64,000 bases of DNA, from NCBI GenBank assembly GCA_036170475.1, contig JAVHPE010000161.1, positions 5,559 through 69,558 on the forward strand, given 5' to 3'. The DNA is from Bacteroidia bacterium. GTDB lineage: Bacteria > Bacteroidota > Bacteroidia > 2-12-FULL-35-15. Of this stretch, positions 14,450-55,038 are shown one piece after another; positions within the stretch are counted from its first letter, which is position 1, and each line of letters opens with the position of its first letter. The notes under the pieces are model-generated. The model made no database searches, was not told where the DNA came from, and was given only the letters and a program-made list of their open reading frames with translations. The position numbers and the translations under genes were made by a program.

Positions 14450-14561
14450 AGATTCATGGTATTAATTTAACAATTTATTAATTAAAATAATTTACTAGTT
14501 TGTTAATCACGGGCTAAACATTTTCAAATTGCCCCCATTTCAAGTTAGCACATTATTTATT

Positions 14562-39453: not shown

Positions 39454-40365
39454 TTAATAATGTTGCGCCCCTTCAATAACCCTGAAAATATGTAAAATAG
39501 ATGGGAATAAAGCATCCATGGATTCCTGCGCACCTTTGGTTGAACCCGGCAATGTCATAATAAGTGTATTGCCTTTCATGCCTGCAATGCCCCTGGATAA
39601 CATAGAAAAAGGGGTTCGGTCCTGACCGTAATTTCTTGCCGCTTCCATTATTCCCTGAACTTCCTTGTCCAATAGAGGTTTTATTGCCTCAGGTGAATTA
39701 TCTCTTGGTGAAAGACCTGTGCCCCCGGTTAAAATAATCAAGTCGATTTTAGTTGCGTGCAAGTTCAATACTTTTTCCTGTATCCCTTTTGTATCATCCG
39801 GTATTACAGAGTAATCAGTAATAGCAACCTTACACGATTCTAATTTTTTGATAATCGCTTTGCCTGCTTTATCCGTTTTTTTGCCTGCTGAAATACTATC
39901 AGAACATACAATTACAGCCGCTTTTAAATCGGTACGGAATTTATCAATGAAGTCGGATTTGCCACCTTTTTTCTCCAGTAATTTTATGGATTGAATTTCA
40001 ATTCCTTTATCAATAGGCTTAAGCATATCATACATGGTAAGTGCAATCACTGACGCACCGTGCATGGCTTCTACTTCAACTCCGGTTTTATAGATGGTAT
40101 GAACTTCTATTTCAATGAAAATTTCTAATCCCTTGATATCAAATCTTACGGCAGTATATTCAACCGGCATAGGATGGCAGTCAGGAATCATATCGCTGGT
40201 CCTTTTTACAGCAAATAGCCCGGCCGTTTTTGCCATTTCAAAAACATCACCTTTCGGAACGCTTTTATTTACAATAGCATCAACAGTTTCTTTTTTGCTG
40301 ACTTTTACAATCGCCTGTGCTTTTGCCATGCGATGCGTACTTGATTTGAATGTTATATCTACCAT
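39454..40365 (-). CDS. moaC: Bifunctional MoaC (cyclic pyranopterin monophosphate synthase) / MoaB-MogA-like protein
   Basis: N-terminal half is MoaC-like ([23 protein letters not shown]). C-terminal half is MogA/MoaB-like ([12 protein letters not shown]). Confidence 0.88.
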
Positions 40366-40407
40366 AATTTAATGTGCTGATTTATTGATGTGCTAATGTG
40401 CTGATTT

Positions 40408-40854
40408 TCATGATTTATTTTCTTTCCAAACATGGGAGGCATCTTCAAAAATTTCTTTTCCCCAGATGGGAACATCTGCTTTAATTTGTTCGACAATTTC
40501 GTGGCAGGCGTCAAAAGCATCTTTACGATGTATGGATGAAACAAATACAAACAAACATATTTCGCCGGCTTTAACAGTTCCAAGGCTGTGATAAATGTGC
40601 ATACAAACTAAATTGTAGTTTGCGAAAGCTGCTTCCCGTATTTCATGCAATTTTTGTTCAGCCATTTCATTGTAAGTCGAATAGTCAATTGCAACAACTG
40701 TTTTGTTATCAATGATATCATTTCGGACCTGTCCTAAAAAAATGTCATGCCCACCGATAGTAGTTTTTTTACTGTGTTTTGAAATACTGTCAGCAATAAA
40801 AGCAGAAGTTATTGGACCTTCAATAAATACGCTATGTTTCTTTTTCTCTGTCAT
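40408..40854 (-). CDS. moaE: Molybdopterin synthase catalytic subunit MoaE
   Basis: 148 aa. GGHDIFLGQVRN, VFVSSIHRKDAFDAC and PIWGKE. Confidence 0.85.
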   Translation of the reverse strand: MTEKKKHSVFIEGPITSAFIADSISKHSKKTTIGGHDIFLGQVRNDIIDNKTVVAIDYSTYNEMAEQKLHEIREAAFANYNLVCMHIYHSLGTVKAGEICLFVFVSSIHRKDAFDACHEIVEQIKADVPIWGKEIFEDASHVWKENKS

Positions 40855-40897
40855 TTTAAATTAAAAATTTATGATTATTTTGCATTAGTAAATTTAA

Positions 40898-41131
40898 TTA
40901 CCCTCCCGAAAAGGGCGGTAATAGTGCCACCGTATCTTTATCATTTAACGAGGTGTTTCCCTGAACAATTTTTTTATTTACCGCCAATAGATAGTTAAAT
41001 GCCACTAATTTAGGATACTGTTCGATAAGTTTTTGATTTAATTCGTTCGTATTTTTTACATCTAAAATTCTTAACTCAGCTTTTCCGGTTATTTCGGCAA
41101 GTTGTCCGAATGCAAGTAAATTAATTTCCAT
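40898..41131 (-). CDS. moaD: Molybdopterin synthase sulfur-carrier subunit MoaD
   Basis: 77 aa, ubiquitin-like, with a C-terminal ...PPFSGG di-glycine. Confidence 0.85.
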   Translation of the reverse strand: MEINLLAFGQLAEITGKAELRILDVKNTNELNQKLIEQYPKLVAFNYLLAVNKKIVQGNTSLNDKDTVALLPPFSGG

Positions 41132-41720
41132 TTTGTAATTTTTTAATTGCTTTTTCTAAATCCTCTTTGGTATTGACATTAAAAAAAACTGAATCATTGA
41201 ATAAATTATTATCATCAACATTTAATTTCAGGATGGAAAAATAACTAATCAAATCCTGTAATTTGAAAATATTTTGACGAATCAGATCGTTCCATTTGCT
41301 CAAACACCCTTTTGAATATACTCCAAACATTGGTTCAATTTTTTGATGGTAAATCGGCAAAGTTATTTGTGCCTGAGCGGTCTGACTTATAACAAACTCA
41401 ATAGAACGGCTTGTTACAAATGGCATATCGCAGCTTACAATGAAGTTTTTTTCGACATCAGTATGATTTAATGCGACATGAATTCCTCCTGCAGGACCTA
41501 TGTTTGTTACAAGATCACTAATTACTTCAATACCGAATTTTTCATAATCAGGATTATTGGAAACAATTACCAGCTTATTAACTGCAGGTTTCACCTGCTC
41601 CATCACATGTTGTATAATTGCTTTCCCGTTGAAAAGAATTAAGCCTTTGTCAATACCCATGCGTAAACTCTTTCCACCGGCAAGAATGTAGCCATTGATT
41701 GTATTTATTTTAGTAACCAT
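41121..41720 (-). CDS. mobA: Molybdenum cofactor guanylyltransferase MobA
   Basis: GYILAGGKSLRMGIDKGL and VSCDMPF. Confidence 0.85.
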   Translation of the reverse strand: MVTKINTINGYILAGGKSLRMGIDKGLILFNGKAIIQHVMEQVKPAVNKLVIVSNNPDYEKFGIEVISDLVTNIGPAGGIHVALNHTDVEKNFIVSCDMPFVTSRSIEFVISQTAQAQITLPIYHQKIEPMFGVYSKGCLSKWNDLIRQNIFKLQDLISYFSILKLNVDDNNLFNDSVFFNVNTKEDLEKAIKKLQNGN

Positions 41721-41723
41721 AAC

Positions 41724-42458
41724 TCAGGTAATAATTAGCTTAATAGATGCAATTATCAATACAACAGCCAATAATTTATTCAAAAAACGGTTATCAAATT
41801 TCTTCGCCCCAAAATATGAACCGGCTATTCCTCCCGCCAATGCAATAATTATCATTAAACCCATTTCATTTTTATATTCGAAGCCTTTTGTAAATAGACC
41901 AGCCAGACCGGCTACTGAGTTAACAAAAATGAATAATGCGGAAACAGCGGCTGTTTTTTTCATATCTGCCCAGTGTAGGAGCAAAATGATGGGGCTTAAA
42001 ATGATTCCGCCACCTATTCCTATCAAACCAGAAAACAAACCAATAGCCGCTCCGATTATAAGTGCAATAACAATATTTTGTCTGACTTCTAATTTCTCTG
42101 TTTGGATCTTTACTCCTAATAGTTTTATCACCGAAAAAAGTAAAAGAACAGCCAATATTTTTTTATATAAACCTGCGTCAACAGTTATCATGCCTCCTAT
42201 AAATGCGGCAGGAAATGAAGCTAAAGCGAATGGCCAAAAGAGATTCCATTTAAAATATCCGCTTCGGTAATATTGAACAAATGCAATAAGTGAAACAAAA
42301 ACATTCAACAACAATGCTGTTGGTCGCATTGTTTCAGGAGCAAATGAAAAAAAAGTCATCAATGCCAGATAACCGCTTGCACCGCCATGTCCGACTGAGG
42401 AATACAAGAATGCGACAGCAACCAGTAAAATATAAAATAGAAGAAGTGATGCTGTCAT
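41724..42458 (-). CDS. TauE/SafE (DUF81) family anion-exporter-like membrane protein
   Basis: 244 aa with about 8 TM helices and two internal halves carrying GxGGG motifs (VGHGGASGY, IGIGGGIIL). Confidence 0.75.
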   Translation of the reverse strand: MTASLLLFYILLVAVAFLYSSVGHGGASGYLALMTFFSFAPETMRPTALLLNVFVSLIAFVQYYRSGYFKWNLFWPFALASFPAAFIGGMITVDAGLYKKILAVLLLFSVIKLLGVKIQTEKLEVRQNIVIALIIGAAIGLFSGLIGIGGGIILSPIILLLHWADMKKTAAVSALFIFVNSVAGLAGLFTKGFEYKNEMGLMIIIALAGGIAGSYFGAKKFDNRFLNKLLAVVLIIASIKLIIT

Positions 42459-42802
42459 TGTTTATTGTTTTTATTCAACTTGGTTGAAAAAGTTGTTTTG
42501 AATTTTTGAAATTCAATTTCCATCTGATGAAAGTGTTTTAGTAGATTTTCTCCTTCAAATGTTAATATGGTTCCTCCGCCATCACTGCCACCTATCGTTT
42601 TAATTACAATCTTTTTTTTTGCTCCACGATTCATTTCATTGACCATAGTCCATGCCTGACGGTAGGATATTTCTAATGACTGCGCAGCTTTTGAAATAGA
42701 GCCCAGCTCTTTAATTTTCTCCAACAATCTGGCGCGGCCTTTTCCGATTTGTAACCCGGCAACTTCCAACCATAAATTCCCTTTTATTTGAAATAAATTC
42801 AT
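42455..42802 (-). CDS. ModE N-terminal-domain-only winged-HTH regulator (no Mop/TOBE domain)
   Basis: GKGRARLLEKIKELGSISKAAQSLEISYRQAWTMVNEMN...GGSDGGGTILT matches the ModE/LysR-type HTH N-domain. Only 115 aa. Confidence 0.75.
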   Translation of the reverse strand: MNLFQIKGNLWLEVAGLQIGKGRARLLEKIKELGSISKAAQSLEISYRQAWTMVNEMNRGAKKKIVIKTIGGSDGGGTILTFEGENLLKHFHQMEIEFQKFKTTFSTKLNKNNKQ

Positions 42803-42809
42803 AATGATC

Positions 42810-43994
42810 TCAATTTAACAAATGAATTTCCACTAACTCACCTTTTTGAAACTCGGTTTTAGTTTCGTCGAGCTGAATAATGCAATCGGCAAACGCAAAG
42901 GAGTTCATCAGGTATGACTCTTGTGCCTGTAAAGGAATAACTTTGTTCCCTGATAGCAGTCCTTTAAGAAAATAGGTCAATCCTTCTTTTTTACTGTAGG
43001 AGGATGATAAAGGAAGATAAATGCTTTCTTCCTTTTTAGTTTTAAATCCCATCATTTTTTTTAAAGCAGGAGCAATGTATTCGTAATAACAGGTCAATAA
43101 AGCGGATGGATTCCCGGGTAAACCAAATACCATCGTGTTTTTATATTTTCCGAAATAGATTGGCATACCGGGCTTTTGTTTCACTTTATGAAATATACGT
43201 TGCACCCCGCAGTTATCAAATGCTTTAGTCACAAAATCGTAATCGCCTACGGAAACGCCACCGGAAAGAATCATTACGTCACAATCCGGAAGATTATTTT
43301 TTATGATGTTGGTAATTTCCTGTTCGTTATCATCAACACTTAAAATCTTCTTTGGTGTAATGTTTAATGCCTTTAACGCAGCATTTAAACTATATGAATT
43401 GCATTCGTATATTTTGCCCGGTTCCAATGCTTGCCCGGGTTTGTTTAATTCTTTTCCTGTAGTAATTATGCAGACACGGGGAGGAAGGAACACGTGTACC
43501 TTATCAAAACCTAATCCGGATAAAAATCCTGCTGCGCCAGCAGAAATTTTGCATCCTGCTTTCAGGGCAAGACTTCCATTTGTAGTTTGTGATCCTTTCA
43601 GCCGGATGTTTGCACCTTTTTTTAATTGAGTATCATTAATAAAAAGTTGATTTTCCCGAACAGTAACTTTTTCCTGCATTACAACAGTATCGCTACCTTC
43701 AGGTACAGGCGCTCCGGTAAAAATGCGAATGGCTGTATTGGGTAATAGTTTTTTGGTTGGAAAAACACCGGCAGGGATTTCGCCGTCAATTTTAAAAGCC
43801 TGATTCCCTTTCAAGTCATCAAATCTAAAACCATATCCATCCATTGCCGATTGATCAAACGAAGGAACATCAATTGTAGAATAAACGTCCTCTGCTAGTA
43901 TAAGACCGGTTGCATCATATAATGAAATACTAATTGGAGCAAGATGTTTTGTGTTTTCGGTTACTAATTGTTTTGCTTCTGAAACTGAAATCAT
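42810..43994 (-). CDS. moeA: Molybdopterin molybdotransferase MoeA
   Basis: VPSFDQSAMDGYGF, ILSGGVSVGDYDF and GLPGNPSA. Confidence 0.9.
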   Translation of the reverse strand: MISVSEAKQLVTENTKHLAPISISLYDATGLILAEDVYSTIDVPSFDQSAMDGYGFRFDDLKGNQAFKIDGEIPAGVFPTKKLLPNTAIRIFTGAPVPEGSDTVVMQEKVTVRENQLFINDTQLKKGANIRLKGSQTTNGSLALKAGCKISAGAAGFLSGLGFDKVHVFLPPRVCIITTGKELNKPGQALEPGKIYECNSYSLNAALKALNITPKKILSVDDNEQEITNIIKNNLPDCDVMILSGGVSVGDYDFVTKAFDNCGVQRIFHKVKQKPGMPIYFGKYKNTMVFGLPGNPSALLTCYYEYIAPALKKMMGFKTKKEESIYLPLSSSYSKKEGLTYFLKGLLSGNKVIPLQAQESYLMNSFAFADCIIQLDETKTEFQKGELVEIHLLN

Positions 43995-44041
43995 AATTTT
44001 TTTTCGATATGTTAATTAAGTAATAACGGTAGCTAAAAAAA

Positions 44042-45025
44042 TTAGCCGCCTAGTCCTATCATGCTTCTTTCGCGGTTTTCCGTATTTTTTTTTCCCCAGT
44101 TATCGTTTTCATTATTTCCGCCCAGCATTTCATATTTCCCTTGTACACAAGCATGTATTAATGGCTCAATGTCTTTTCCCTGACGCAATGTGTTAAGCAA
44201 ATCAGTTTCCTGTTTCGCAAAGAGGCAGTTATACATTTTGCCATCAGAAGTCAGCCGCATTCGATTACATCCGCTGCAAAAAGGTTCGCTCATTGTGCTG
44301 ATTACAGCAAATGTCCCAAGGTGCTTTGGTACAAAATATTTTTTTGCCGTATCATTTTTTTCATTCAGTAACTTTATATAATGATATTTCGATGAAATTA
44401 CATCTAAAATTTGCTTGTGAGTAAACATTTTATCCTTGCTCCATTCATTTCCTGTAAAGGGCATAAACTCTATAAAACGAACATGCACAGGAGCATCTTT
44501 TGTCCATTCAATGAAGTTTAAGATCTCATCATCATTAAAGTTTTTTATGGCAACCGTATTAACCTTCACATGAAAATCCTTTGACAACAATAAATTAATG
44601 TTGTCCCTAACACGGCTGAACTCATCGCGTTGTGTGATGGAAAGATACTTTTCTTTTTTCATGGTGTCCAAACTGACATTCACTGATTTTACTCCTGCTT
44701 CTTTGAATGTTTCAATAAACTCATGAACAAAAACCCCATTAGTAGTGATGGCAAGTTCTATTGGATATTTTGATAGTCGCTGAATAATTTCTTTTGCATC
44801 TCTCCTTACCAATGGTTCACCGCCGGTAAGACGAATTTTTTTAACTCCTGATTTTACAAAAACAGCAGCAATACGTTCAATTTCATCCGCATTCATGCGT
44901 GGAGCATTTGCGAAAACGCCTTTAGGCAAATCTTCCGGTGTACAGTAACTGCAACGCAGATTACATTTATCTGTGATGGAAATTCTCAGATAATCATGAA
45001 TACGGTTGAATTTGTCTGTTAGCAT
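44042..45025 (-). CDS. moaA: GTP 3',8-cyclase MoaA (radical SAM)
   Basis: CNLRCSYC radical-SAM cluster, C-terminal CSGCNRMRLTSDGKMYNCLF cluster, and a GG tail. Confidence 0.92.
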   Translation of the reverse strand: MLTDKFNRIHDYLRISITDKCNLRCSYCTPEDLPKGVFANAPRMNADEIERIAAVFVKSGVKKIRLTGGEPLVRRDAKEIIQRLSKYPIELAITTNGVFVHEFIETFKEAGVKSVNVSLDTMKKEKYLSITQRDEFSRVRDNINLLLSKDFHVKVNTVAIKNFNDDEILNFIEWTKDAPVHVRFIEFMPFTGNEWSKDKMFTHKQILDVISSKYHYIKLLNEKNDTAKKYFVPKHLGTFAVISTMSEPFCSGCNRMRLTSDGKMYNCLFAKQETDLLNTLRQGKDIEPLIHACVQGKYEMLGGNNENDNWGKKNTENRERSMIGLGG

Positions 45026-45071
45026 TTGTGAAATTAATTAGGTCTGTAGGTTCCGGTAAGTGATTTAAAAA

Positions 45072-45803: not shown

Positions 45804-45811
45804 TTTTTTGT

Positions 45812-46027
45812 TTACTTACCTGAAGTTGCATTCGTACTTTTTATTTCCTCTGTGACATCATCCATGCCTTTGGAGCTTTTTTTAAATTCATTAATACCCT
45901 TTCCAAATCCTTTCATTAGTTCAGGAATTTTTTTACCGCCGAAAAGCAGAAGAATAATAATTCCAATAATTACTAATTCGGGACCGCCAAGACCCATTAT
46001 TCCTATAATCATTCCTAATGTTATCAT
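45812..46027 (-). CDS. tatA: Twin-arginine translocase subunit TatA/E
   Basis: 71 aa. [37 protein letters not shown] is the canonical TatA TM-hinge-amphipathic helix. Confidence 0.88.
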
Positions 46028-46063
46028 TTAGTTTGTTGTTAAATTGTTTATACTCTTTAAGGT

Positions 46064-46112
46064 AAAAAAGTCCTGTAAATTCAGATTGAATTGAGAATTA
46101 TTATTTACAGGA
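46064..46112 (-). terminator. Candidate rho-independent terminator/attenuator between the Mo-enzyme genes and tatA
   Basis: Minus-sense tcctgtaaat-N22-atttacagga followed by cttttttacc. 10-bp perfect stem with a large loop. Confidence 0.45.
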
Positions 46113-46266
46113 GTATTAATGCGAATCAAGGATTGAATTTTTGTTGATATAAATTAAACTAAATTTTATTACCGGATTAATCTACTTTTAATAAATTAAC
46201 TCCTTCAATTTTCAACCCCTGATTCACATCAAAAATAATTTCAAAAAGGCGCACAATTTTTCAATT

Positions 46267-48780
46267 TTATGCTTTATAAATTTTTACACAATTTTCTTTG
46301 TGTAAAGCCTGACCACTAATTGGGTCACCTTTGGTAGTACGTAAATTTGCGTCTGAAGAACCGCGTCCTTTCGCCTCTGAGCCAAATGCCCAATGTCCAA
46401 AGCCATGTTGCGAACCTACTACTTCGGGATGAATACCCTCAGTCAATTGTGCTTTCGCTTTCATTTTTCCAAATTTAGATTCTACCCACACCTTATCTCC
46501 GTTTTTAATTCCAAGTTTCTGCGCTGTTTTGGTATTTATTTGCAAAGGATTTTCTGGTTTGAGATCTAATAGCCAACGATTATTTTGGGTGCGTGTGTGT
46601 GTGTGTGTTGATTCCTTCCAATTAATTAAAAAGAGAGGAAATTCTGCATCCGGATACCAATCGCGTTGTTTGTAATTTGGAAATTCGATACAGGCATTAC
46701 CAACGGCATCTTTTTTCCCTTTTAAAACGTTTAAAACAAATTCCGCTTTTCCTGAAGGTGTCATAAAGCCTTTTACTGCTTTTTTTACTTCTTGTCCACT
46801 TTCATCTTTCACCAAAAGATAGGTTCCCATTCGTTTACCTCCATTTTCTTTGGGCTTGTCATAAATGTGTTCAACATCAACACCATCAATTGAAACCTTA
46901 ACTATGGTGGCTGTTTTTAGCTTTTCGGGATCAATAGCCTTTTTATATTTTTCATATTCCGTTTTGCCAGTTGTCCAGACTGCGCCAGGAAGTTTTTTAA
47001 ATTCTGCCAGGGTCATTTTTGGTGCTCCGTTAATAATTTCTTTTGAAAGAAATTCTTCATACCATTTTGTTAAACTTTCTACCCGTTCTCCGGAAATAGG
47101 ATTATTCCAGAAAAAATCTTTTCCTTCTTTATCTTTCAAACCTACCCTTCTTCCCAATTCTACTACAAATTCAGCTTCCGTTGGTTGGCCAAAAATGGGT
47201 TTTACCACAGGTTGCCGCAACGTGAGCGAAGGCCATGTAACCCAATTTCCTGTCCAATCATATCGTTCCAGATAAGTTACACCGGGTATTACAATATCTG
47301 CAAATTGGGCTGTTTCAGATAGGAAAATATCGTTTACTACTACAAATTCAAGATTACTCAATGCCTTTGCAACTGTATCTGTTCCGGGAACTGACATCAA
47401 TAAATTTTGGAAAACAATAATGGCCATTTTAGCTTTATACTGCCCTTTTCCATCAGCAAGTTGCTGTAATATTTCAGGATATACTCCTGATGAATGAAAC
47501 ATCGGATACATTTTGTTATCGTTGGAAAAACGTGGCTTTGATGTTTTTTCAAACTCAATATGCTGATGGTCATTTCCTTTTTTATTTGGAAATATCAAGG
47601 TTCCAGGACGGTCGTATCCACCAACTAATGCATTTAATGCTGCGATTGCAGCTCCACCATTCACTCCATTCGAATGTTGACCGGGACCAGACCATGCATC
47701 CGCCAATGCAGGTTTTGTAGTGGAAAAATCAATTGCAATACGTTCAATAGTAGCGGCAGGAATAGTGGTAATTTTTTCTGCCCATTCTGGTGTTTTGTCT
47801 TTTACATGTTCTGAAAATTCTTTAAAACCGTATGACCATTCGTTAACGAATTTCTCATCGTACAATTTATCCCTGATAATTACATGAGACATTGCCAATG
47901 CCATCGCACCATCGGTAGAAGGACGGATAGGAATCCATTCGTTGGCTTTACGTGCTGTGTATGACATATAAGGGTCAACCACAACTAGCTTAGCTCCTTT
48001 TTCAATTGCACGGGTAATGATTCTCGGAAGTAACGACCATTTTGTTGCTCCAAGCGGATTCCAACCAAAAAGTAAAATATATTTTGATTGTATGGCATCA
48101 ATTAATGGTCTTTCATCACCTACAACCGATTTGAATGCTGCCTTTCTTGTGGTATCACATAAACCGGAATGGTTGTTATAATTTGGTGTACCGTATAAAT
48201 CGCAAAAATCGCTTTGTATGTGTGTAAAACTATGGTCTTCCGAAAACCACAGCAAAGATTCCGGTGTTCCGTCATCTTTCAATTTTTTCATTTTAGCTGC
48301 AATAGTACTATATGCCTCTTCCCAAGAAATTTCTACAAATTTAGGATCTTCTCCAATTCCTTTTTTTGGATTGGTACGTTTAACGGGTTTTGCCAAACGA
48401 TCCGGATCATACAGTGTCATCATTCCTGCATTTCCTTTTGGGCACATTACAGAACCGCCTTCCAAAGCGCAATTTTTTTCAAAATCATCAGAAATATTGC
48501 TGAATCCAATTGGGTTATAGGAGTTAGGTTTAATCCGAATAAGTTTTCCATCCACCACTTGACATTTTATTCCCGTTTGTCCGCCACACATATTGCAGCA
48601 ACTTGGGATCCATTCTCCGGCAGTAAAGTCATATCGTTTATCAACTTCCTCTGCAAATTTTTCGGGGCTGAGTGCCAAGGCTTTAGAAAACCATGATGAT
48701 CCGAGAAGAAGACCTCCTGTTCCCAAAGCGGCTTTTGCTAAAAAACTTTTACGGGTTTCTTTATTACTATTATTATCCAT
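46267..48780 (-). CDS. Periplasmic molybdopterin (Mo/W-bisPGD, DMSO-reductase-family) oxidoreductase catalytic subunit, Psr/Phs/Arr/Ttr-like, substrate unknown
   Basis: Tat-like signal ETRKSFLAKAALGTGGLLLGS. N-terminal FS0 cluster Cys residues are CCNMCGGQTGIKC...MCPKG. Candidate Mo-ligand motif is NNHSGLCDTTRK. Conserved TPEWAEKITTIPAATIERIA. C-terminal THTHTRTQNNRWL and domain IV. Confidence 0.85.
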   Translation of the reverse strand: MDNNSNKETRKSFLAKAALGTGGLLLGSSWFSKALALSPEKFAEEVDKRYDFTAGEWIPSCCNMCGGQTGIKCQVVDGKLIRIKPNSYNPIGFSNISDDFEKNCALEGGSVMCPKGNAGMMTLYDPDRLAKPVKRTNPKKGIGEDPKFVEISWEEAYSTIAAKMKKLKDDGTPESLLWFSEDHSFTHIQSDFCDLYGTPNYNNHSGLCDTTRKAAFKSVVGDERPLIDAIQSKYILLFGWNPLGATKWSLLPRIITRAIEKGAKLVVVDPYMSYTARKANEWIPIRPSTDGAMALAMSHVIIRDKLYDEKFVNEWSYGFKEFSEHVKDKTPEWAEKITTIPAATIERIAIDFSTTKPALADAWSGPGQHSNGVNGGAAIAALNALVGGYDRPGTLIFPNKKGNDHQHIEFEKTSKPRFSNDNKMYPMFHSSGVYPEILQQLADGKGQYKAKMAIIVFQNLLMSVPGTDTVAKALSNLEFVVVNDIFLSETAQFADIVIPGVTYLERYDWTGNWVTWPSLTLRQPVVKPIFGQPTEAEFVVELGRRVGLKDKEGKDFFWNNPISGERVESLTKWYEEFLSKEIINGAPKMTLAEFKKLPGAVWTTGKTEYEKYKKAIDPEKLKTATIVKVSIDGVDVEHIYDKPKENGGKRMGTYLLVKDESGQEVKKAVKGFMTPSGKAEFVLNVLKGKKDAVGNACIEFPNYKQRDWYPDAEFPLFLINWKESTHTHTRTQNNRWLLDLKPENPLQINTKTAQKLGIKNGDKVWVESKFGKMKAKAQLTEGIHPEVVGSQHGFGHWAFGSEAKGRGSSDANLRTTKGDPISGQALHKENCVKIYKA

Positions 48781-48839
48781 GATATTTATGATTTAAGTTT
48801 CTTTTGTTTTTATTGTTATAGAATTAATTCATGCATGCA

Positions 48840-49736
48840 TTACGTTAAATAATACACACTTGGATTGGTGCCTTTTTCTTCTTTAAGACGAAAATGTTTT
48901 CTTGTTTTAAGAAGTTCCTGCAAATTATCACCAGTAACAAGGCATTTTGCATTAGGGTCTTTTAAATTACCAAAATGAATTGCTCTTGCCATGCAAGTAC
49001 GTGAACATGCTGTTGGTTCACGATACTCTCCGTTTTCATCCTGAAGATGTAAGCACAACATACATTTCCTTGACAGGGTAACCGGAGCTTTTTCTTTTTC
49101 AGCATCACGTATGCCATACTTTGCATTAAATTCACTTGATGGAATAAGATTAAATGGATTTTTAGGGTCGGCAATGTAATTTTTACCGACATCTATTACA
49201 CGCGCTCCATAAGGGCATGCTTTAACACAATCACCTGCACCAACGCATTTATCATAATTAGTTATTACAATTCCATCGTCCCGTTTATATGTAGCATTAT
49301 TAGGGTCATTTAGTAGAGTTGTTGCATTATTAGGACAAACCGGTATGCAAGGCGGATTTTCGCAGTGCATACATGGGTGGGTATAAGAATTGAAAGTAGT
49401 TTTTGGATATGCTCCTTTTTCCTCTTCTATAAAACGATTGTAAAAAACACCCGGAGGAGTTTTGTTTTCATTTTTGCAGGCTACAACACATGCTTTGCAA
49501 GCGACACAACGTTTCAGGTCAATGATAAAACCCCATTGTGCACCTTTTTTACCAGTAGTGGACTGAACTTTTGGACTATTTGCAGATGCCGCAAATGGAA
49601 TTGCAGATAGTAATGCGAAGCCTCCAATTTTTTTCAAAAAATCAGCCCGACTTGTTCCACTCATTTCAGTTTCTTTTTCAAGAAAGGCATCTAATTTTTC
49701 AATACCTTCTTCGTTTTTATTTTCGTTGGGTTCCAT
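48840..49736 (-). CDS. 4Fe-4S dicluster-type electron-transfer subunit (PsrB/DmsB/TtrB-like) with its own signal peptide
   Basis: Cluster motifs are CVACKACVVACKNEN, CMHCENPPCIPVCP, CVGAGDCVKACPYGA and CMLCLH...CSRTCMARAIHFG. N-terminus is SRADFLKKIGGFALLSAIPFAASA. An alternative start is ATG 49664. Confidence 0.85.
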   Translation of the reverse strand: MEPNENKNEEGIEKLDAFLEKETEMSGTSRADFLKKIGGFALLSAIPFAASANSPKVQSTTGKKGAQWGFIIDLKRCVACKACVVACKNENKTPPGVFYNRFIEEEKGAYPKTTFNSYTHPCMHCENPPCIPVCPNNATTLLNDPNNATYKRDDGIVITNYDKCVGAGDCVKACPYGARVIDVGKNYIADPKNPFNLIPSSEFNAKYGIRDAEKEKAPVTLSRKCMLCLHLQDENGEYREPTACSRTCMARAIHFGNLKDPNAKCLVTGDNLQELLKTRKHFRLKEEKGTNPSVYYLT

Positions 49737-49770
49737 ATTTTTCTTTTATTTTTTTATGTTAGAAAAAGTA

Positions 49771-50976
49771 TTATTTAAATACATAGTAGAAGGTCAAGCG
49801 CACAACCATATCAGATTTTCTTTCATAATATTTTGCCCGGTCTGAAGCTTTTGTAGCATCATATGACGAAGGTTTGGCTCTCATATCGGTGTAAGAATTC
49901 ATCCAGATATTAGGTATGAAATGCACATTGTTAGTGGGTGTATAATCCAAACCAACAGTTAAAAACCCTTCATTATAATATGTTGCAATGGATGGCATTT
50001 TGTATCCTTTTTGGTAGCCCTTATTATAGATATCATAACGGGCAAAAGCATATAGTTTATCTTTTAAAATAGTGCCTCTTGCAAAAATGCTTAACCCCAT
50101 CGGTTTGTAATCAAGGGTATCTTTATTTTTGCCGGTAGCAATAAACCCTGTTGTATCTATTACCTGATTTTTTTGAGTTTGAGATACATATTCCACTCCT
50201 ACTGTGAACAATTTGTGTTGGTATGCTATAAATCCTTCTAAACTTCTGATACTTTTAAGGACGTGTTTCGAGCCTCCGGTTGGTATGTAAAGCTGATCCT
50301 CATAGTCATAATTTAAAGCCAAAAGAACTTTTGCGTCTAACAAACTGGCGTCAAATCCGGCATAAGCTTTTTCTAAGTTGTTGTCTTCAGGTTTACTACC
50401 TTTTCCTGTCGCCCACATAACATGATATCCCACTTTGTTTTTTCCTTCTGTCTCCAATTTGAATAAGCTTGAAATTCGTATTCCAAGATCGTTGGAAGGA
50501 AGTAGTTTTCTTGCATCACCAAAGACTTTTTCTACTGAACGATAGGCCCATGTTTTTTCTGCAAGTGAAAAACTGGTGGTGCCTACCTGTCCGATATAAA
50601 GTGTATGTTTTGGTAGAAAATTTTTCCATTCCAGGTTACATGATTTAATTAATGAGGTTCTGTCTCCTCCGGCAGTCAGTATTCCATCACTTGCTTCGAA
50701 AAGCAAATGTGCGGTAAAGTTCTGGGATATGCCGTAATCGTAACCAAGATAAATTCTTCGCAGCGAAATGCTGGTTTGGGATTTTTTTGTTTTAGCAAAT
50801 TCAGACTCACCAAAATTGATAATGGTGTCGCCTCCTATTTTATTATAAAAATCGCCAAAGGCTAATCCCCATAGTTTGCCACTTGGTTTAAATTCTTCCT
50901 TTGGTTTCTCCTGTGCGTTTATCTGGATTGCAAACATTACCAGTAAAAGGCTTGATAAAAATGTTTTCGTTTTCAT
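49771..50976 (-). CDS. Outer-membrane porin-like beta-barrel (possibly OprO/P-type anion porin); first gene of the Mo-enzyme operon
   Basis: Signal peptide MKTKTFLSSLLLVMFAIQINAQ. Alternating amphipathic strands. SLRRIYLGYDYGISQNFTAHLLFE resembles the F-x-hR-R-A-R-L block of phosphate-selective porins. Aromatic-rich C-terminal strand LTFYYVFK. Confidence 0.55.
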   Translation of the reverse strand: MKTKTFLSSLLLVMFAIQINAQEKPKEEFKPSGKLWGLAFGDFYNKIGGDTIINFGESEFAKTKKSQTSISLRRIYLGYDYGISQNFTAHLLFEASDGILTAGGDRTSLIKSCNLEWKNFLPKHTLYIGQVGTTSFSLAEKTWAYRSVEKVFGDARKLLPSNDLGIRISSLFKLETEGKNKVGYHVMWATGKGSKPEDNNLEKAYAGFDASLLDAKVLLALNYDYEDQLYIPTGGSKHVLKSIRSLEGFIAYQHKLFTVGVEYVSQTQKNQVIDTTGFIATGKNKDTLDYKPMGLSIFARGTILKDKLYAFARYDIYNKGYQKGYKMPSIATYYNEGFLTVGLDYTPTNNVHFIPNIWMNSYTDMRAKPSSYDATKASDRAKYYERKSDMVVRLTFYYVFK

Positions 50977-51038
50977 ACTTTTTATTTTTAAGATTTTAAT
51001 TAAAATTTGTTTGTTTGTTTTAAGTGTGCAAAATCATT

Positions 51039-51054
51039 GGCAAGATTGACACCA
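51039..51054 (-). promoter_or_regulatory. Candidate sigma-54 (-24/-12) promoter for the porin/Fe-S/Mo operon
   Basis: Minus-sense TGGTGTcaatcTTGCC gives GG-N10-GC with correct spacing versus consensus TGGCAC-N5-TTGC. It lies 63-78 nt upstream of ATG 50976, immediately downstream of a sigma-54 activator gene. Confidence 0.55.
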
Positions 51055-51138
51055 ATCATTGTATAAAAAAAATAATTTTTACAAAGCCCTACTATTACAG
51101 CGATTTACGCTTATTTGATAGAAAATACGTCAATAAAA

Positions 51139-51179
51139 AATGTGCGATATTTCGCATTATTAACGAATTATCGCACATT
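51139..51179. promoter_or_regulatory. Perfect 11-bp inverted repeat AATGTGCGATA-N19-TATCGCACATT: enhancer (UAS) site and/or terminator of the sensor operon
   Basis: Seen directly. Its centre is about 105 nt upstream of the -24 element. On the minus strand the 3' arm runs into a T-rich tract (cacattttttatt), so a terminator role is equally possible. Confidence 0.45.
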
Positions 51180-51243
51180 TTAAAGTAAAAAAAGTGATTA
51201 TAAATTGAAAAAAAGACTGCTGATAGATCAGGTAAATATAATA

Positions 51244-52602
51244 TTAACTGTTAATCGAATGCTTTTCCATTTTTGAGCGTAGCGTTGAGAGTGGAATTCC
51301 AAGCATTTCAGCGGCTTTGGATTTATTGTTTTTATTTTTTTCTAAAGCAAACTTAATAGAGGAAATTTCCACTTCAGATAATGTTTGTTCAAGATTTTTT
51401 GTACCAATAATAGAGCACAAATCAGCAAACTTGTAGTTTCTAATTTCCGATGGCACATGCTGTATCTCTATTTTTCCGGCATCAGCAATAATTACCATCC
51501 TTTCTGATATGTTTTTTAATTCTCTTACATTCCCCCGCCAACTATAATCATTTAAGAGTTTATATACTTCGTTTGAAATTACAAGTTCTTTCCCTTGAGA
51601 ATACTTGTTTACATAATGGTCAAGTAATTTTTTAATGTCTTTTTTTCGCTCTCTAAGAGGTTGAAGATAAATCGGAAAAACATTTAATCTATAAAAAAGG
51701 TCTTCACGAAATTTACCTTCATTAACCATCAGGCGAAGATCTTTTTTAGTAGATACTATTAAGCGAATATTAATTTTAATGGGTATTGAACTTCCAACTC
51801 GTTCAATTTCTTTTTCCTGCAACACTCTTAAAAGTTTTACTTGTAAATCTAAAGGAATATCATCTATGTCATCAAGGTATAAAGTGCCTCCGTTAGCCGA
51901 TTCAAAACGGCCTTTTTTATCTTGATCAGCACCTGTGAATGCACCTTTAACATGTCCAAAAAGTTCGCTTTCAAATATTTCCCGTGATAAAATGGCACAA
52001 CTTACTTTTATCAAAGGTTGTTTCTTACGAGCGCTATTATAATGAATAATATTTGTTACATGTTCTTTTCCTGTTCCTGTTTCACCGTTGATTAATACAG
52101 TTGTGTCCTTTTCTGCAATTAATTTTATTAAGTCAAAAAGCTCTTTATTAGTTTCATTTTCTCCTATATATGCTGATAAATCATACTTGCTTTCAATTTG
52201 ATTTCTAAGTACTTTATTTTCCTTTTTTACAGAATTCAATTCATTGATACGTTCAATGATCAACAAAATTTCTTCCAACTTAAATGGTTTTGTTATGTAA
52301 TCATAAGCTCCGTTTTTCATTGCTTCTACAGCATTATCAACTGTTCCAAACGCTGTCATTACAACAACGGTTATTTCCGGTTTTGTTTTTTTTATTTTGG
52401 AAAGCAACTCTAATCCATCCATCCCAGGCATTTTCAAATCTGTAATTATTATTTCAGGACAATATTCTTCCATGCTGATAAATACTGATTCTGCATTAGA
52501 AAATTCACGAACATCAAATCCTTGATCACGCAAATCATCAGCGAGTGTTACCCGAATTATCCTTTCATCTTCAACAACTGCAATTTTAGTTTTATTTTCC
52601 AT
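51244..52602 (-). CDS. Sigma-54-dependent response regulator (NtrC/AioR-type: REC + AAA+ + Fis-HTH)
   Basis: REC domain (phospho-Asp context IIITDLKMPGMDG), Walker A GETGTGKE, GAFTGA sigma-54 contact loop, and a C-terminal HTH AAEMLGIPLSTLRSKMEKH. Confidence 0.92.
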   Translation of the reverse strand: MENKTKIAVVEDERIIRVTLADDLRDQGFDVREFSNAESVFISMEEYCPEIIITDLKMPGMDGLELLSKIKKTKPEITVVVMTAFGTVDNAVEAMKNGAYDYITKPFKLEEILLIIERINELNSVKKENKVLRNQIESKYDLSAYIGENETNKELFDLIKLIAEKDTTVLINGETGTGKEHVTNIIHYNSARKKQPLIKVSCAILSREIFESELFGHVKGAFTGADQDKKGRFESANGGTLYLDDIDDIPLDLQVKLLRVLQEKEIERVGSSIPIKINIRLIVSTKKDLRLMVNEGKFREDLFYRLNVFPIYLQPLRERKKDIKKLLDHYVNKYSQGKELVISNEVYKLLNDYSWRGNVRELKNISERMVIIADAGKIEIQHVPSEIRNYKFADLCSIIGTKNLEQTLSEVEISSIKFALEKNKNNKSKAAEMLGIPLSTLRSKMEKHSINS

Positions 52603-54124
52603 TTAGGAGTATATTTTCGTTTTTAATAGTAAGAACAACAGTAAATGTCATCCCATCTTTTTCATTTCGTTTTGCTGATATTTTTCCTCCATGTTGCTCA
52701 ACTATTCTATAACAAACGGCTAAACCAAGACCAGTTCCCTGTCGTATTTTTTTAAATGTATAAAAAGGATCAAATATTTTTTGAAGCTTTTCAGGCGGGA
52801 TACCAATTCCATTATCAGAAATAACTAATATCAAATAATCATCCTTGGCGGTTAAATTAATTTCAATTTTACCTTTCAAATCAGGATCATCTATTTTCTT
52901 TTCATCAATTGCATCAATACTATTTAAAAGAAGATTGAGAACTAACTGCTCAATATGGTTAATACTCGCCTTAGTGAGTGGTATATTCAGAGAACTATTT
53001 TTAATTATTGAGATTTTGGATTTTTCCAATTGGAAAGAAATTAACATTAAAACATTTTCAATTAGTATTAAAAGATTTACATCTGAAAATACAAGCTCTT
53101 GCTTTCGACTAAAATTTAAAAGCCCCCCAACTACATTTTCAATTTTATTAATCGCCTCCGATATCATTTCAAAATACTTAATATTCTGATTTACGTTCTC
53201 CGGTTCTTTTGAAATTCTTCGAATACAACTTTTTATTCCGGCAATAGGATTATTTATTTCATGGGCAACACCAGCTGAAAGCGTTCCCAATGAAGCCATT
53301 TTTTCAGTTTGTACAAATGAATCCTGTGTTTCCTGTAGTTCAACATAAGTATCCTTCAATCGCAGAACCATTTCATTATATCTGAAAATTAATACGTCTA
53401 TTTCGTCTTCTATTCCTAATACATTTTTCCATTTTGCAACTCGTTTCAGACGAAATTGCGCATTGTCTTCTTTATTACTTGGAATATTAAAAGACTTTAA
53501 ATTAAATTTCTCAGAAGTTTTTGTAATATACTTTATTGGTGTGGTAATAATAAAAGCAAAAAATAATGCTGCACTAATTCCAAAAAAAAGAAAAAGCACA
53601 ACCATTTTTATAAAAATCGCATTTGAAGTTGAAATGTTTTTAGTGTAGTTGTCTTCAAATAAACCCACACGCACAACACCTAATGTCCCATTTAAAACAG
53701 GTATTGCAATATCTCTTATCTCTTTTGATGTTTTGTTATCTTTTAATCTAACTGTATTACTACTTTTTTTATTTATAAGAAAGTTTGCCTCAATAAGTTT
53801 TGAAGGAACTGAATTCTTAAATGTATGTGCTAAAACATTGTTTTTACTATCTAAAATGAACACATAAGCGAAATTGGAATCTATCCTGATCTGGTCGGTA
53901 ACTAAATTATTTAAGGCAGCCAAATCATCATATAAAATTGGCTCAACACTCCTTTCTGCAATTATTTTGGCGGTTGTTAAACCGTGATGAGTAAGCTCTG
54001 ATTCAAACAGTTGATAAACTGATTTATTTAAAAGATATAAATTGGTTGAACCAAAAACAGCTACTATCGCAGCAATTGCTATTGAAAATTTCCAAAATAA
54101 GGGGAGGGAGAAATGTCTTTTCAT
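52592..54124 (-). CDS. Sensor histidine kinase (2 TM helices flanking a ~140-aa periplasmic domain, HisKA, HATPase_c)
   Basis: H-box GVAHEINNP, N-box LLLNSIDA, and G-boxes DNGIGI and GTGLGLAV. Overlaps the RR gene by 11 nt. Confidence 0.9.
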   Translation of the reverse strand: MKRHFSLPLFWKFSIAIAAIVAVFGSTNLYLLNKSVYQLFESELTHHGLTTAKIIAERSVEPILYDDLAALNNLVTDQIRIDSNFAYVFILDSKNNVLAHTFKNSVPSKLIEANFLINKKSSNTVRLKDNKTSKEIRDIAIPVLNGTLGVVRVGLFEDNYTKNISTSNAIFIKMVVLFLFFGISAALFFAFIITTPIKYITKTSEKFNLKSFNIPSNKEDNAQFRLKRVAKWKNVLGIEDEIDVLIFRYNEMVLRLKDTYVELQETQDSFVQTEKMASLGTLSAGVAHEINNPIAGIKSCIRRISKEPENVNQNIKYFEMISEAINKIENVVGGLLNFSRKQELVFSDVNLLILIENVLMLISFQLEKSKISIIKNSSLNIPLTKASINHIEQLVLNLLLNSIDAIDEKKIDDPDLKGKIEINLTAKDDYLILVISDNGIGIPPEKLQKIFDPFYTFKKIRQGTGLGLAVCYRIVEQHGGKISAKRNEKDGMTFTVVLTIKNENILLNGK

Positions 54125-55038
54125 TCTTTTATAAATCGAATCATTTCTTCAATATGATTATAATCAGCTTCTTTCCCTTCTACAAATTTGTCTATTGATA
54201 ATTTATTAAGTATTTTTTTTCCCTCTGTATCCTCATGTAAGGTAGTTAGTATTTTTTTTAATTTTTCCTTCGTTTCTTTCTTCAAATTTGCCGGAACTAC
54301 AACAGGGGATATTGCAAAATCTTCTGATTTTTCAATAATTTTAATCTGTGTTACCGATTCAGGATGATGCTCTGCCATGTATTCATAAATCAAACCGTCA
54401 ACAGAAGCTCCATCAATTACTCCTTTTGAAATAAGTTGCATCGAAATATCGTGTGCGTAAGAAAACACAGTTGAGCCAAAAAATTCGCCACTCTTAAATC
54501 CTAACTCTTTAACTCGTTTATCCGCGTATAATTTCCCGGAATTCGACAGAGGATCGGTATATGCGAAAGTTTTGCCTTTTAATTCTATAAATTTAGTGAT
54601 AGATGATGTTTTAGGAACAATGATATATGACTGGTAAAAAGGTTTGCCATAGCAAACAGGAACTGCGAGTAATTCCAAATTACAATTCTTCTTATCCATC
54701 ACATAAGCTCCAGTGCAAATAAAGGCGAGATCTACTTCATTTTGCGCAAGCAATTGATCTACTTCTTTGTAGGTTTTTCGTTGTTTGAACTCAATTTTAT
54801 AATCAAGTTTTTTAGAGATATAATTAAAAAGTTCCTCATAAAAAGTAAATGTTTCTCTTGGAGAGATTATAGCAGAGACCGCAACATTTAGTTTTTGAAT
54901 AGTATCCTTTTTTGTGGTTTGTGATTTTTTTATATTTTGATCTGAGAAATCAATAATTTTAGTGTCTCCGTTGTTTTGGTTTGGTTGCCCGCAACTATAC
55001 GCTAAAATGATGCAACAAAAAGTAAATAAAAGTCTCAT
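54121..55038 (-). CDS. PhnD-type (phosphonate/oxyanion) periplasmic substrate-binding lipoprotein, AioX/ArxX-like position
   Basis: Lipobox LAYSCGQ. FAYTDPLSNSGKLY matches the PhnD 'dp-S-x-SG' ligand loop. ATGA overlap with the kinase gene. Confidence 0.75.
   Translation of the reverse strand: MRLLFTFCCIILAYSCGQPNQNNGDTKIIDFSDQNIKKSQTTKKDTIQKLNVAVSAIISPRETFTFYEELFNYISKKLDYKIEFKQRKTYKEVDQLLAQNEVDLAFICTGAYVMDKKNCNLELLAVPVCYGKPFYQSYIIVPKTSSITKFIELKGKTFAYTDPLSNSGKLYADKRVKELGFKSGEFFGSTVFSYAHDISMQLISKGVIDGASVDGLIYEYMAEHHPESVTQIKIIEKSEDFAISPVVVPANLKKETKEKLKKILTTLHEDTEGKKILNKLSIDKFVEGKEADYNHIEEMIRFIKE

Follow-up and report, generated by a model that had tools for sequence, protein, structure and literature searches.

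A predicted arsenic-oxyanion sensor and an anchorless molybdenum enzyme of an uncharacterized lineage in one operon of a Bacteroidia bacterium

Bacteria with arrA are considered responsible for arsenic mobilization in aquifers, and the markers used in gene surveys are arrA, arxA, and aioA. The sensors AioX, ArxX, and ArrX share a pocket made of Y88, C106, Y131, S161, S163, H192, and D210, the Cys of which is missing in PhnD (Badilla et al.; PMC5908839). AioX and ArxX bind arsenite, ArrX binds arsenate, and none of the three bound selenate, sulfate, thiosulfate, or tetrathionate in isothermal titration calorimetry (ITC) (PMC5908839). The same study classes AioR and ArxR as sigma-54-type regulators, whereas ArrR is not a sigma-54 activator. 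In ArrA, the substrate is contacted by Y166, H189, S190, K198, and Y210 (PMC10654088), and unnamed Cys-ligated MopB lineages from metagenome-assembled genomes (MAGs) have been mentioned (Wells et al. 2023; PMC10100899). Here we analyze an operon in a 64-kb stretch of contig JAVHPE010000161.1 from a Bacteroidia bacterium (the whole stretch, 64,000 nucleotides, is called the window). Its upstream part has the order X-S-R-promoter-porin-B-A, where X is a PhnD-like binding lipoprotein, S a histidine kinase, R a sigma-54-dependent response regulator, B a four-cluster iron-sulfur (Fe-S) subunit, and A a molybdo-bis(pyranopterin guanine dinucleotide) (Mo-bisPGD) catalytic subunit; it has no ABC permease or ATPase genes.

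Catalytic lineage, membrane anchor, and Fe-S subunit

The A subunit belongs to a well-separated, uncharacterized lineage of Cys-ligated Mo-bisPGD enzymes that comes almost solely from MAGs. Its relatives number in the hundreds (47-82% identity), are nearly all MAG-derived, and carry only the names "molybdopterin-dependent oxidoreductase" or "thiosulfate/polysulfide reductase chain A." Scores against the NCBIfam equivalogs fall below every cutoff, including those of PhsA (393 bits; cutoff 694), ArrA (NF041714; 244 bits; cutoff 1600), and TtrA (95 bits; cutoff 1750), and the TtrA model matches the C-terminal domain only. A neighbor-joining (NJ) tree was computed from 383 N-terminal columns with 200 bootstraps, using as references the N-terminal stretches of ~400 aa from Data Set S1 of Leu et al. 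2020 (PMC7327174); TtrA was not included. The lineage is monophyletic in this tree (100% support) and lies outside ArrA/ArxA, PsrA/PhsA, SreA, and SrdA, which together with the sub-cutoff scores bears out the possibility raised in the initial annotation that A represents an uncharacterized clade. Its grouping with Arr/Arx/ActB has 36% support. One protein of the reference set, from GCA_001828545, falls in a basal subclade of A-B loci together with L087 and L089. A literature search found neither a description of the lineage nor a link between it and arsenic. Among solved structures, A is closest by sequence to PsrA (2vpw; 7e-75) and then ArrA (4e-60), with PcrA at 1.3e-26. Foldseek ranks ArrA first (E 2.3e-33, TM-score 0.60) and PsrA second (TM-score 0.53); the AlphaFold2 model behind this search has a mean pLDDT of 66 with poorly modeled cofactor regions, and it was used for the ranking only.

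The active site is partly ArrA-like. HSGLCDTTRK in the window aligns to HSSVCAEAHK in ArrA, and the H-S-x2-C-x4-K pattern thus has the ArrA counterpart that had been proposed. ArrA H189, S190, C193 (the Mo ligand), and K198 correspond to H204, S205, C208, and K213 of the window protein, and Y166 and Y210 correspond to H183 and R224. ArrA R165, which we take to be a further substrate-contact residue, corresponds to D182. The mapped residues are invariant in the lineage, save for S or A at S205 and a single His-to-Ala change at H183. The (R/K)GRY motif, reported missing at the outset, is indeed absent: FSEDHSF aligns to RGRYSH of ArrA, and R224 could be a relocated positive charge after loss of the motif's arginine. 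The ArxA motif xGRGWG is not found either; WFSEDH aligns to YGRGWG of ArxA PHS-1, and A lies outside the Arx branch of the tree. The Thermus PsrA structure has no His-Ser before its Cys and no Lys after it in the alignment. As a separate feature of A, the FS0 motif (window 48780-48560, residues 61-113) has the form C61-C62-x2-C65-x7-C73 ... C113; an alignment of 20 members shows no variation at C61, C62, C65, or C113, and the position of the canonical third Cys (ArrA C68) is Thr or Ser in most.

The locus encodes neither a membrane anchor nor a cytochrome, as the initial annotation had stated. A tblastn search with five NrfD proteins from relatives found no homologue in the 64-kb window, and no ORF there contains a CxxCH motif; an overlooked anchor or cytochrome is rejected on these grounds. 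TauE is a multi-transmembrane protein, but of a transporter family. Of the three subunits of a complex iron-sulfur molybdoenzyme (CISM) with an NrfD-type anchor, A and B are present, and C is absent from the 64 kb but present in relatives. The survey of relatives' gene neighborhoods that had been suggested was carried out on 80 loci from one-genome-per-species contigs (about twenty phylum-level labels, many from groundwater) and nine loci retrieved through exact proteins. The standard order is B-NrfD (C)-A. The closest relative, L007 (82% A identity), has NrfD and the same downstream tatA and Fnr genes, and the second closest, L006/L010 (Bacteroidetes RIFCSPLOWO2; 77% A identity), has NrfD as well. 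A blastn comparison with L007 gives 68% nucleotide identity for B and 77% for A, and cleanly skips the 1.2-kb NrfD gene. A deletion scar was looked for and rejected; the 59-nt spacer between B and A holds no NrfD remnant. The exact A protein occurs on 13 contigs, and the B-A junction is identical in all five independently assembled contigs shown, so the layout is not an assembly artifact.

B directly precedes A in 14 loci (the window, L008, L015, L019, L020, L027, L031, L044, L045, L046, L050, L060, L062, and L070), and two further, more distant anchorless loci have the order A-B. The NJ tree disperses the anchorless loci. The window has L007 as its sister (99%) and L008 has L001 (94%), both of them NrfD-bearing; L019, L020, and L027 make up a separate trio (99%), L044 is paired with L021, and L046 belongs to the other subclade. 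NrfD was therefore lost at least five times within the lineage, each time with the same change of an Fe-S ligand in B, and the anchorless B-A layout is a derived, not an ancestral, state. The layout singled out initially is thus real, but the norm of the lineage, including the two closest relatives, is B-NrfD-A. A porin gene in front and the Fe-S gene before the Mo gene had been regarded as an unusual combination; both are the rule in the lineage, and the porin is found in 38 loci.

The ligand change lies in the third Cys group of B. FS4, the distal cluster on the side of the membrane subunit, is ligated in DmsB and NarH by Cys one to three of group III together with the final group-II Cys, and replacement of the second group-III Cys (C102 of DmsB; Trp in NarH) yields a [3Fe-4S] cluster. 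The PcrB and EbdB structures have a [3Fe-4S] FS4 that exchanges electrons with a heme protein. The group reads C-I-G-C-(R/K)-Y-C in all 59 alignable NrfD-containing loci, and its second Cys is gone in 13 of the 14 B-A loci versus none of the 59 (Fisher p 1.6e-13), the replacements being A, K, I, T, L, or Y. Window B reads CVGAGDC where its relatives have CIGCRYC. A column contrast over the B alignment finds the I, C, R, and Y of the motif, plus one Val before Cys group IV, as the sole positions that separate the two sets. HMMER alignments to solved structures place the substitutions of PcrB (CKGAQAC) and EbdB (CKGHRHC) in the same columns, whereas PsrB (CIACGAC) and ArrB (CIGCKKC) keep four Cys. 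This correlated change was overlooked in the initial annotation, and it would explain how an anchorless form can work. FS4 of window B is accordingly predicted, by analogy, to be a [3Fe-4S] cluster. Loss of NrfD combined with a group-III Cys loss like that of PcrB and EbdB suggests a soluble AB enzyme with a heme partner encoded elsewhere; such a partner would probably exchange electrons with AB as a free periplasmic dimer.

The two subunits differ in rate. For B, the distance to L010 is 0.357 for the window versus 0.164 for L007, about twofold faster, but at a dN/dS of about 0.14 that still indicates purifying selection; for A, the corresponding distances are 0.209 and 0.212, without acceleration, and dN/dS is about 0.06. 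We read the changes in B as remodeling of the partner-facing end, not as decay. B also has a 10-residue insertion that resembles a local duplication (CPNNATTLLNDPNNATYKRD; window 49290-49335, residues ~135-150) between Cys groups II and III and is absent from all other aligned B subunits, the closest relatives included. Variants of the twin-arginine translocation (Tat) motif are confined to the Bacteroidota branch: (S/T)-R-K-S-F-L in A (window 48750-48765) and S-R-(A/S)-(D/E)-F-L, with a single Arg, in B (window 49650-49665), compared to RR in both subunits in other phyla. The variants also occur in NrfD-containing L007 and L010 and are therefore not linked to anchor loss.

Several genes recur beside the enzyme in other loci. 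Multiheme ORFs lie within 8 kb of 5 of the 16 C-less and 7 of the 69 C-containing loci (p=0.044), with none in the window, an enrichment that is only suggestive of a cytochrome partner. Multiheme c-type cytochrome genes near five anchorless loci (L087 6-353, where a 3-heme gene directly abuts A; L062 13690-14496; L045 11695-15215; L019 16352-18906; and L089 1949-3592) are candidates for encoding the electron partner there. In 15 loci the gene immediately after A encodes a TorD/DmsD-like chaperone; these comprise 8 of the 16 anchorless loci (L015, L019, L027, L031, L044, L045, L062, and L089) versus 7 of ~69 anchored ones, and the window has no such gene. A gene of ~110 aa resembling AhpD/carboxymuconolactone decarboxylase lies downstream of A in 13 loci (for example, L034 12368-12730), again not in the window; its weak NCBIfam matches are to AhpD-domain selenoproteins, including an ArsM-AhpD fusion model. 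In L038 (5306-15701; Verrucomicrobiales), a tandem B-C-B-C precedes A and a second, distant A-like gene follows, a possible duplication of the electron-transfer module.

Sensor and arsenic genes beside the operons

The X protein is an ArrX/AioX-type sensor predicted from its sequence to bind an arsenic oxyanion. Its closest solved structures are ArrX of Chrysiogenes arsenatis (6x6b; 1.4e-47) and AioX of Rhizobium NT-26 (6esk; 1.6e-34), and PtxB, HtxB, and PhnD are far behind. The window protein matches AioX at each of the seven pocket positions (Y, C, Y, S, S, H, and D). The pocket is kept in ten other X proteins encoded upstream of homologous operons, with S163 as S or T; these ten genes stand with a kinase and a response regulator in MAGs of Planctomycetota, Latescibacterota, Elusimicrobiota, Chloroflexota, Bacteroidota, and Firestonebacteria. 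Twelve loci, spread over several phyla, have X-S-R 5' of B(C)A. R of the window is sigma-54-dependent like AioR and ArxR, and other loci have a short response regulator like ArrR. X also matches a "putative selenate ABC SBP" (substrate-binding protein) model weakly, with 72 bits against a cutoff of 250.

Recurrent neighbors were identified by clustering the flanking ORFs of all loci. Seven loci encode the arsenite efflux protein Acr3 (417 bits on NCBIfam acr3 for that of L059), six independent ones encode an ArsC of the thioredoxin type (159 bits against the TIGR02691 cutoff of 174), and six encode ArsR/SmtB regulators. At least one of X, acr3, and arsC is present in 20 of ~85 loci (p~4e-16 versus a generous 2% background, a rate that is our own estimate). 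L059, a Bacteroidota MAG, has the intact order acr3-X-S-R-porin-tatA-B-C-A. Its kinase gene is split into ORFs 3271-3870 and 3874-4794, through a frameshift or stop or a sequencing error. The window itself retains an acr3 remnant 1 kb upstream of the sensor genes, as had been noted, and tblastn with seven Acr3 proteins confirms it (Table 1). The remnant is at best 51-68% identical to intact Acr3 of homologous loci (E down to 5e-33), and the region has no full-length ORF and no Pfam match. The LMWPc gene of the window (60799-61269) was considered as arsC and rejected; it is Wzb-like (67 bits) and reaches 24.7 bits on the ArsC-Trx model, cutoff 174. The substrate, which the initial annotation left open, is narrowed by the ArrX/AioX-type identity of the sensor and by the ars genes that recur beside homologous operons.

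Operon layout, porin, and regulatory signals

The unit consists of 16 intact, tightly packed, co-directional ORFs on the minus strand (55038-39454), and Pfam and NCBIfam agree with the gene labels and coordinates first assigned to them (Table 1). It had been counted as 17 genes on one strand. The single strand is correct, but 17 is reached only if the MoaC-MoaB fusion is counted twice. X and S overlap by 4 nt and S and R by 11 nt, the latter in keeping with the proposed coupling of kinase and activator. The periplasmic sCache_3_2 domain of S is flanked by two transmembrane segments, and R scores 426 bits on AtoC and 423 bits on NtrC of NCBIfam.

Table 1. Operon features and the upstream acr3 remnant (window coordinates)
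Feature	Coordinates	Strand	Basis
acr3 (arsenite efflux) remnant, C-terminal ~117 codons	56004-56354	-	tblastn, seven Acr3 proteins
X, PhnD-like binding lipoprotein	54121-55038	-	Pfam Phosphonate-bd 1.6e-56; lipobox LAYSC
S, membrane histidine kinase, periplasmic single-Cache domain	52592-54124	-	sCache_3_2, HisKA, HATPase_c
R, sigma-54-dependent response regulator (NtrC/AtoC type)	51244-52602	-	Response_reg, Sigma54_activat, AAA_lid_14, HTH_8
18-nt inverted repeat, candidate activator-binding site (upstream activating sequence, UAS)	51137-51181	.	arms 94% complementary, 9-nt spacer
Sigma-54-type -24/-12 promoter match TGGTGTCAATCTTGC	51040-51054	-	pattern match, 5' of porin gene
Outer-membrane porin, 401 aa, distant OprO/OprP (Porin_O_P) relative, first cistron	49771-50976	-	BLAST cluster, hhalign
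B, four-cluster Fe-S subunit, 298 aa, third Cys group CVGAGDC	48840-49736	-	Fer4 families
A, Mo-bisPGD catalytic subunit, 837 aa, Cys208 ligand	46267-48780	-	Pfam Molybdopterin, Molydop_binding
Hairpin + T-run between A and tatA, weak terminator or attenuator	46066-46117	-	15-nt arms, 87% complementary, 22-nt loop, TTTTTT
tatA	45812-46027	-	TatA_B_E 2e-16
Crp/Fnr regulator, N-terminal Cys cluster C9, C12, C17, C23	45072-45803	-	cNMP_binding, HTH_Crp_2
Molybdenum cofactor (Moco)/bis-MGD block: moaA, moeA, modE-N, tauE-family permease, mobA, moaD, moaE, moaC-moaB fusion	39454-45025	-	Pfam

The porin has no direct Pfam match, Porin_O_P (PF07396) included. It belongs to the same BLAST cluster as the porins of 38 loci, among them 13 of the 16 anchorless ones, and 4 of 16 aligned members match Porin_O_P directly. 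A profile-profile comparison (hhalign) of the window porin's subgroup with the Porin_O_P-type subgroup gives 98.5% and E 2.8e-15, in agreement with its annotation as a porin-like outer-membrane protein. Judged from these profiles, a conserved OprP-like channel argues for a substrate that would cross the outer membrane as an anion at high flux. Arsenate, as a phosphate analogue, matches an anion channel better than arsenite, which is uncharged, and other oxyanions match it equally well.

A GG-N10-GC promoter had been placed in front of the porin gene. The placement is correct, but the pattern is no rarer than chance (10 matches in the window versus 9.2 expected), so it is position that points to TGGTGTCAATCTTGC as a promoter, and statistical backing for it was rejected. 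The inverted repeat is ~85-140 nt upstream of this element and is a putative activator-binding site. After A, the hairpin of the initial annotation is present as an inverted repeat followed by a T-run, and a stricter terminator scan does not call it. A Moco riboswitch or other RNA was rejected because an Rfam scan of the window was empty.

Downstream of the enzyme genes, tatA is also found in L003, L007, L021, and L071. The Crp/Fnr protein has the N-terminal arrangement C9-x2-C12-x4-C17-x5-C23 plus a central Cys, a spacing unlike that of E. coli FNR, and scores 47 bits on the NCBIfam Fnr model (cutoff 228); Fnr-type genes flank A in L006/L010 and L007 and recur in 9 loci. Similar Moco plus TauE blocks adjoin the enzyme in L021, L032, L044, and L071. 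The TauE/SafE-family permease (window 41724-42458) is in or beside Moco genes in seven loci of different phyla, the others being L021, L024, L032, L044, L061, and L071, and a role in molybdate, tungstate, or other anion transport is possible. The Moco cluster also contains a stand-alone ModE N-terminal (helix-turn-helix) protein of 115 aa (42455-42802) that lacks the molybdate-binding Mop domains.

The description of the unit as an island does not hold if it implies foreign DNA, and horizontal acquisition was rejected. Its GC content is like that of the flanks, composition is uniform across the window, no tRNA was found in the window and no repeats at the unit borders, and the flanks are housekeeping chromosome (DnaB, UvrA, LpxB, SurE, PBP1, and type IX secretion system cargo). 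Elsewhere in the window and unrelated to the operon, 13163-19423 contains four tandem paralogous genes (428, 431, 431, and 444 aa), followed by the gene for a 10-bladed propeller protein; two of the paralogues have weak matches to outer-membrane beta-barrels and two to thrombospondin type 3 repeats.

Proposed function and comparison with known systems

We tentatively propose that the locus is an arsenate-induced, anaerobically expressed periplasmic arsenate reductase module, and we infer both its substrate and the direction of the reaction. X would report a periplasmic oxyanion to the Cache-domain kinase S, which would phosphorylate the sigma-54 activator R. Bound at the inverted repeat, R would open the -24/-12 promoter and switch on porin-B-A. 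The FNR-like regulator would gate expression, with a dedicated tatA and Moco pathway directly downstream. The OprP-like porin would admit the anionic substrate to the periplasm, where the Tat-exported AB heterodimer would convert it at the Cys-ligated Mo-bisPGD site, most likely from arsenate to arsenite. The quinol-oxidizing NrfD would have been deleted and FS4 of B converted at the same time from [4Fe-4S] to [3Fe-4S], so that soluble AB would take its electrons from a heme protein encoded outside the 64-kb window, like PcrAB or Shewanella ArrAB. The As(V)/As(III) couple (about +60 to +140 mV) lies above menaquinol (about -75 mV), which makes electron transfer to arsenate downhill, and most of the host phyla are menaquinone users; the reductive direction is therefore favored for the quinol-coupled parent enzyme.

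A number of points weigh against the arsenate reductase proposal. To our knowledge, no member of the lineage has been characterized, and we know of no cultured arsenate respirer that uses it. The change of ArrA Arg165/Tyr166 to Asp182/His183 is unexpected for an arsenate pocket, and a high-potential [3Fe-4S] FS4 suits electron exit, the oxidase direction, at least equally well. Arsenic-type neighbors occur in only about a quarter of the loci, many hosts (Nitrospira, Tepidiforma, and Armatimonadota) are aerobes, and no electron donor is visible in the 64-kb window. The NJ tree covers only ~383 columns of the N terminus, and it places the lineage beside Arr/Arx with 36% support. Both arsenite and arsenate are sensed within the X family. 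Because XSR similarity reflects the phylogeny of the organisms, not the ligand (PMC5908839), the ligand of X is not revealed by its higher score to ArrX. The sensor alone does not fix the substrate of the enzyme either, because arrXSR-like genes stand beside a different "SreABC" enzyme in a Methanoperedens element (PMC13444090, 2026).

The opposite direction, an anaerobic or microaerobic arsenite or antimonite oxidase under the same regulatory logic, is unlikely. Electrons would then leave through the [3Fe-4S] FS4 to a soluble cytochrome c and on to an oxidase or nitrate reductase, as in Aio- or Arx-like systems. The conserved X pocket includes the arsenite-binding Cys, and R shares its sigma-54 type with AioR and ArxR but not with ArrR (PMC5908839). 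D182 and H183 in place of ArrA R165 and Y166 would suit neutral As(OH)3, and [3Fe-4S] clusters are generally high-potential, which would make the exit of electrons downhill. Many hosts are aerobes or nitrate reducers according to their record titles, and the NJ tree groups the clade, weakly, with Arr/Arx. However, a putatively anion-selective OprP-like porin is needless for uncharged arsenite, K213, R212, and R224 would give a cationic pocket, and an FNR-type regulator adjoins. In addition, the parent enzyme uses a hemeless NrfD in mostly menaquinone phyla, and electron transfer from arsenite to menaquinone is generally known to be uphill. The antimonite oxidase NaoABC (PMC11521347) was rejected as the identity of the clade; it is NapA-like and has a Rieske subunit.

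It is quite unlikely that the enzyme reduces another tetrahedral or octahedral oxyanion (such as selenate, selenite, antimonate, or tellurate) to which X is tuned. The gene order is like that of srdBCA, as generally known (SrdA is listed in PMC7331816), X has its weak match to the selenate SBP model (72 bits, cutoff 250), Acr3 is known to export Sb(III) too, and the operon includes a putative anion porin. However, the tree places the clade away from SrdA, the arsenate-specific arsC recurs in 6 loci, and the pocket of X is identical to that of the arsenic sensors.

A sulfur-compound reductase acting on polysulfide, thiosulfate, or tetrathionate, with arsenic neighbors that are coincidental or reflect thioarsenic chemistry, is decidedly improbable. 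PhsA (393 bits) and PsrA (2vpw; 7e-75) are the top matches by sequence, but the former score is well under the cutoff of 694, the clade stands apart from Psr/Phs with its own monophyly at 100%, and the Cys of Thermus PsrA has neither the preceding His-Ser nor the following Lys. JGI names of many homologues, the B-C-A order generally known from ttrBCA, and nearby TauE-family genes also point to sulfur, whereas acr3 and arsC are enriched near the operon and the sensor is of the ArrX/AioX type, which bound no thiosulfate or tetrathionate in ITC (PMC5908839).

A decaying remnant, in which the loss of NrfD inactivated the complex and the genes are turning into pseudogenes like acr3, is highly improbable: the truncated acr3 next door, the lack of an electron partner in the window, a B evolving twice as fast as in sister lineages, and non-canonical Tat motifs (RK in A, RA in B) are set against 16 intact ORFs, dN/dS of about 0.06 for a non-accelerated A and about 0.14 for B, recurrence of the same anchor loss and Cys substitution in other phyla, and Tat variants held in common with NrfD-containing L007 and L010.

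If arsenate reduction or arsenite oxidation is the function, a wider reading is possible, which we put forward with the same reserve as the arsenate proposal. The B-(NrfD)-A lineage may constitute a third, unrecognized family of dissimilatory arsenic-oxyanion oxidoreductases beside Arr/Arx and Aio, spread by gene transfer over about twenty phyla of mostly uncultured groundwater bacteria and invisible to arrA/arxA/aioA surveys. Its soluble form would have arisen repeatedly by loss of NrfD and conversion of FS4 from [4Fe-4S] to [3Fe-4S], and the window would be a Bacteroidota case with a dedicated arsenate porin. Some of the arsenic respirers would then have been overlooked, among them Planctomycetota, Omnitrophota, Methylomirabilota, Nitrospirota, Chloroflexota, and Bacteroidota of groundwater. 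Whatever the substrate, the lineage is a natural experiment in which one complex exists with and without its quinol-oxidizing subunit and the loss is coupled to one ligand change. This coupling bears on how FS4 chemistry matches the electron-transfer partner, and the operon-encoded OprP-like porin suggests that passage of oxyanions through the outer membrane can limit such respiration.

Among the characterized systems, PcrAB and EbdABC (also Ser, Clr, and Ddh) are soluble periplasmic complexes without a quinol-oxidizing subunit, as proposed for the window enzyme, with the second Cys of group III replaced. Their Mo is Asp-ligated and they are distant kin within the superfamily (PcrA 1.3e-26); because B of the lineage normally has four Cys, the resemblance of window B to PcrB and EbdB is convergent. 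TtrBCA and SrdBCA, according to general knowledge and PMC7331816, share the B-C-A order, a Cys ligand, a signal peptide on B, and an NrfD-type C. In contrast, the window protein reaches only 95 bits on the TtrA model (cutoff 1750), does not group with SrdA in the tree, and is ~200 aa shorter than TtrA. PsrABC and PhsABC are nearest by sequence, and the parent lineage uses a hemeless NrfD-type subunit like PsrC, but the window enzyme forms a separate clade with a sub-cutoff PhsA score and its lineage has the order B-C-A, not A-B-C. Its B has a Tat-type leader of its own, the HS...K residues are lacking in Thermus PsrA, and the sensor and neighbors are of the arsenic type.

Arr, as ArrAB(C) with ArrXSR in Shewanella sp. 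ANA-3 and Chrysiogenes arsenatis, resembles the window system in its periplasmic, Tat-exported, Cys-ligated Mo-bisPGD subunit and four-cluster Fe-S subunit, and anchorless AB forms exist (that of Shewanella is fed by CymA). The two also have in common H-S-x2-C-x4-K, an X-S-R system with the same pocket, and adjacent ars genes, and ArrA is the best Foldseek match. They differ in that A of the window lies outside the Arr/Arx clade (ArrA model 244 versus a cutoff of 1600), has SEDH for (R/K)GRY, Arg for Y210, and the FS0 motif CC-x2-C-x7-C. Its lineage has a porin gene ahead of B-(C)-A, group III retains all four Cys in ArrB but not in window B, and ArrR is not a sigma-54 activator (PMC5908839). 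AioXSR and ArxXSR supply a regulatory likeness: a periplasmic PhnD-like sensor with the pocket Cys, a membrane kinase, a sigma-54 regulator, and an RpoN promoter before Mo-enzyme genes (PMC5908839). Here the enzyme is neither AioBA (Rieske plus [3Fe-4S]) nor ArxA, and X scores higher to ArrX than to AioX. Compared to all of these, what is new is a predicted XSR-controlled periplasmic CISM oxyanion enzyme from an uncharacterized catalytic lineage, with a convergent change from an anchored to a probably soluble form.

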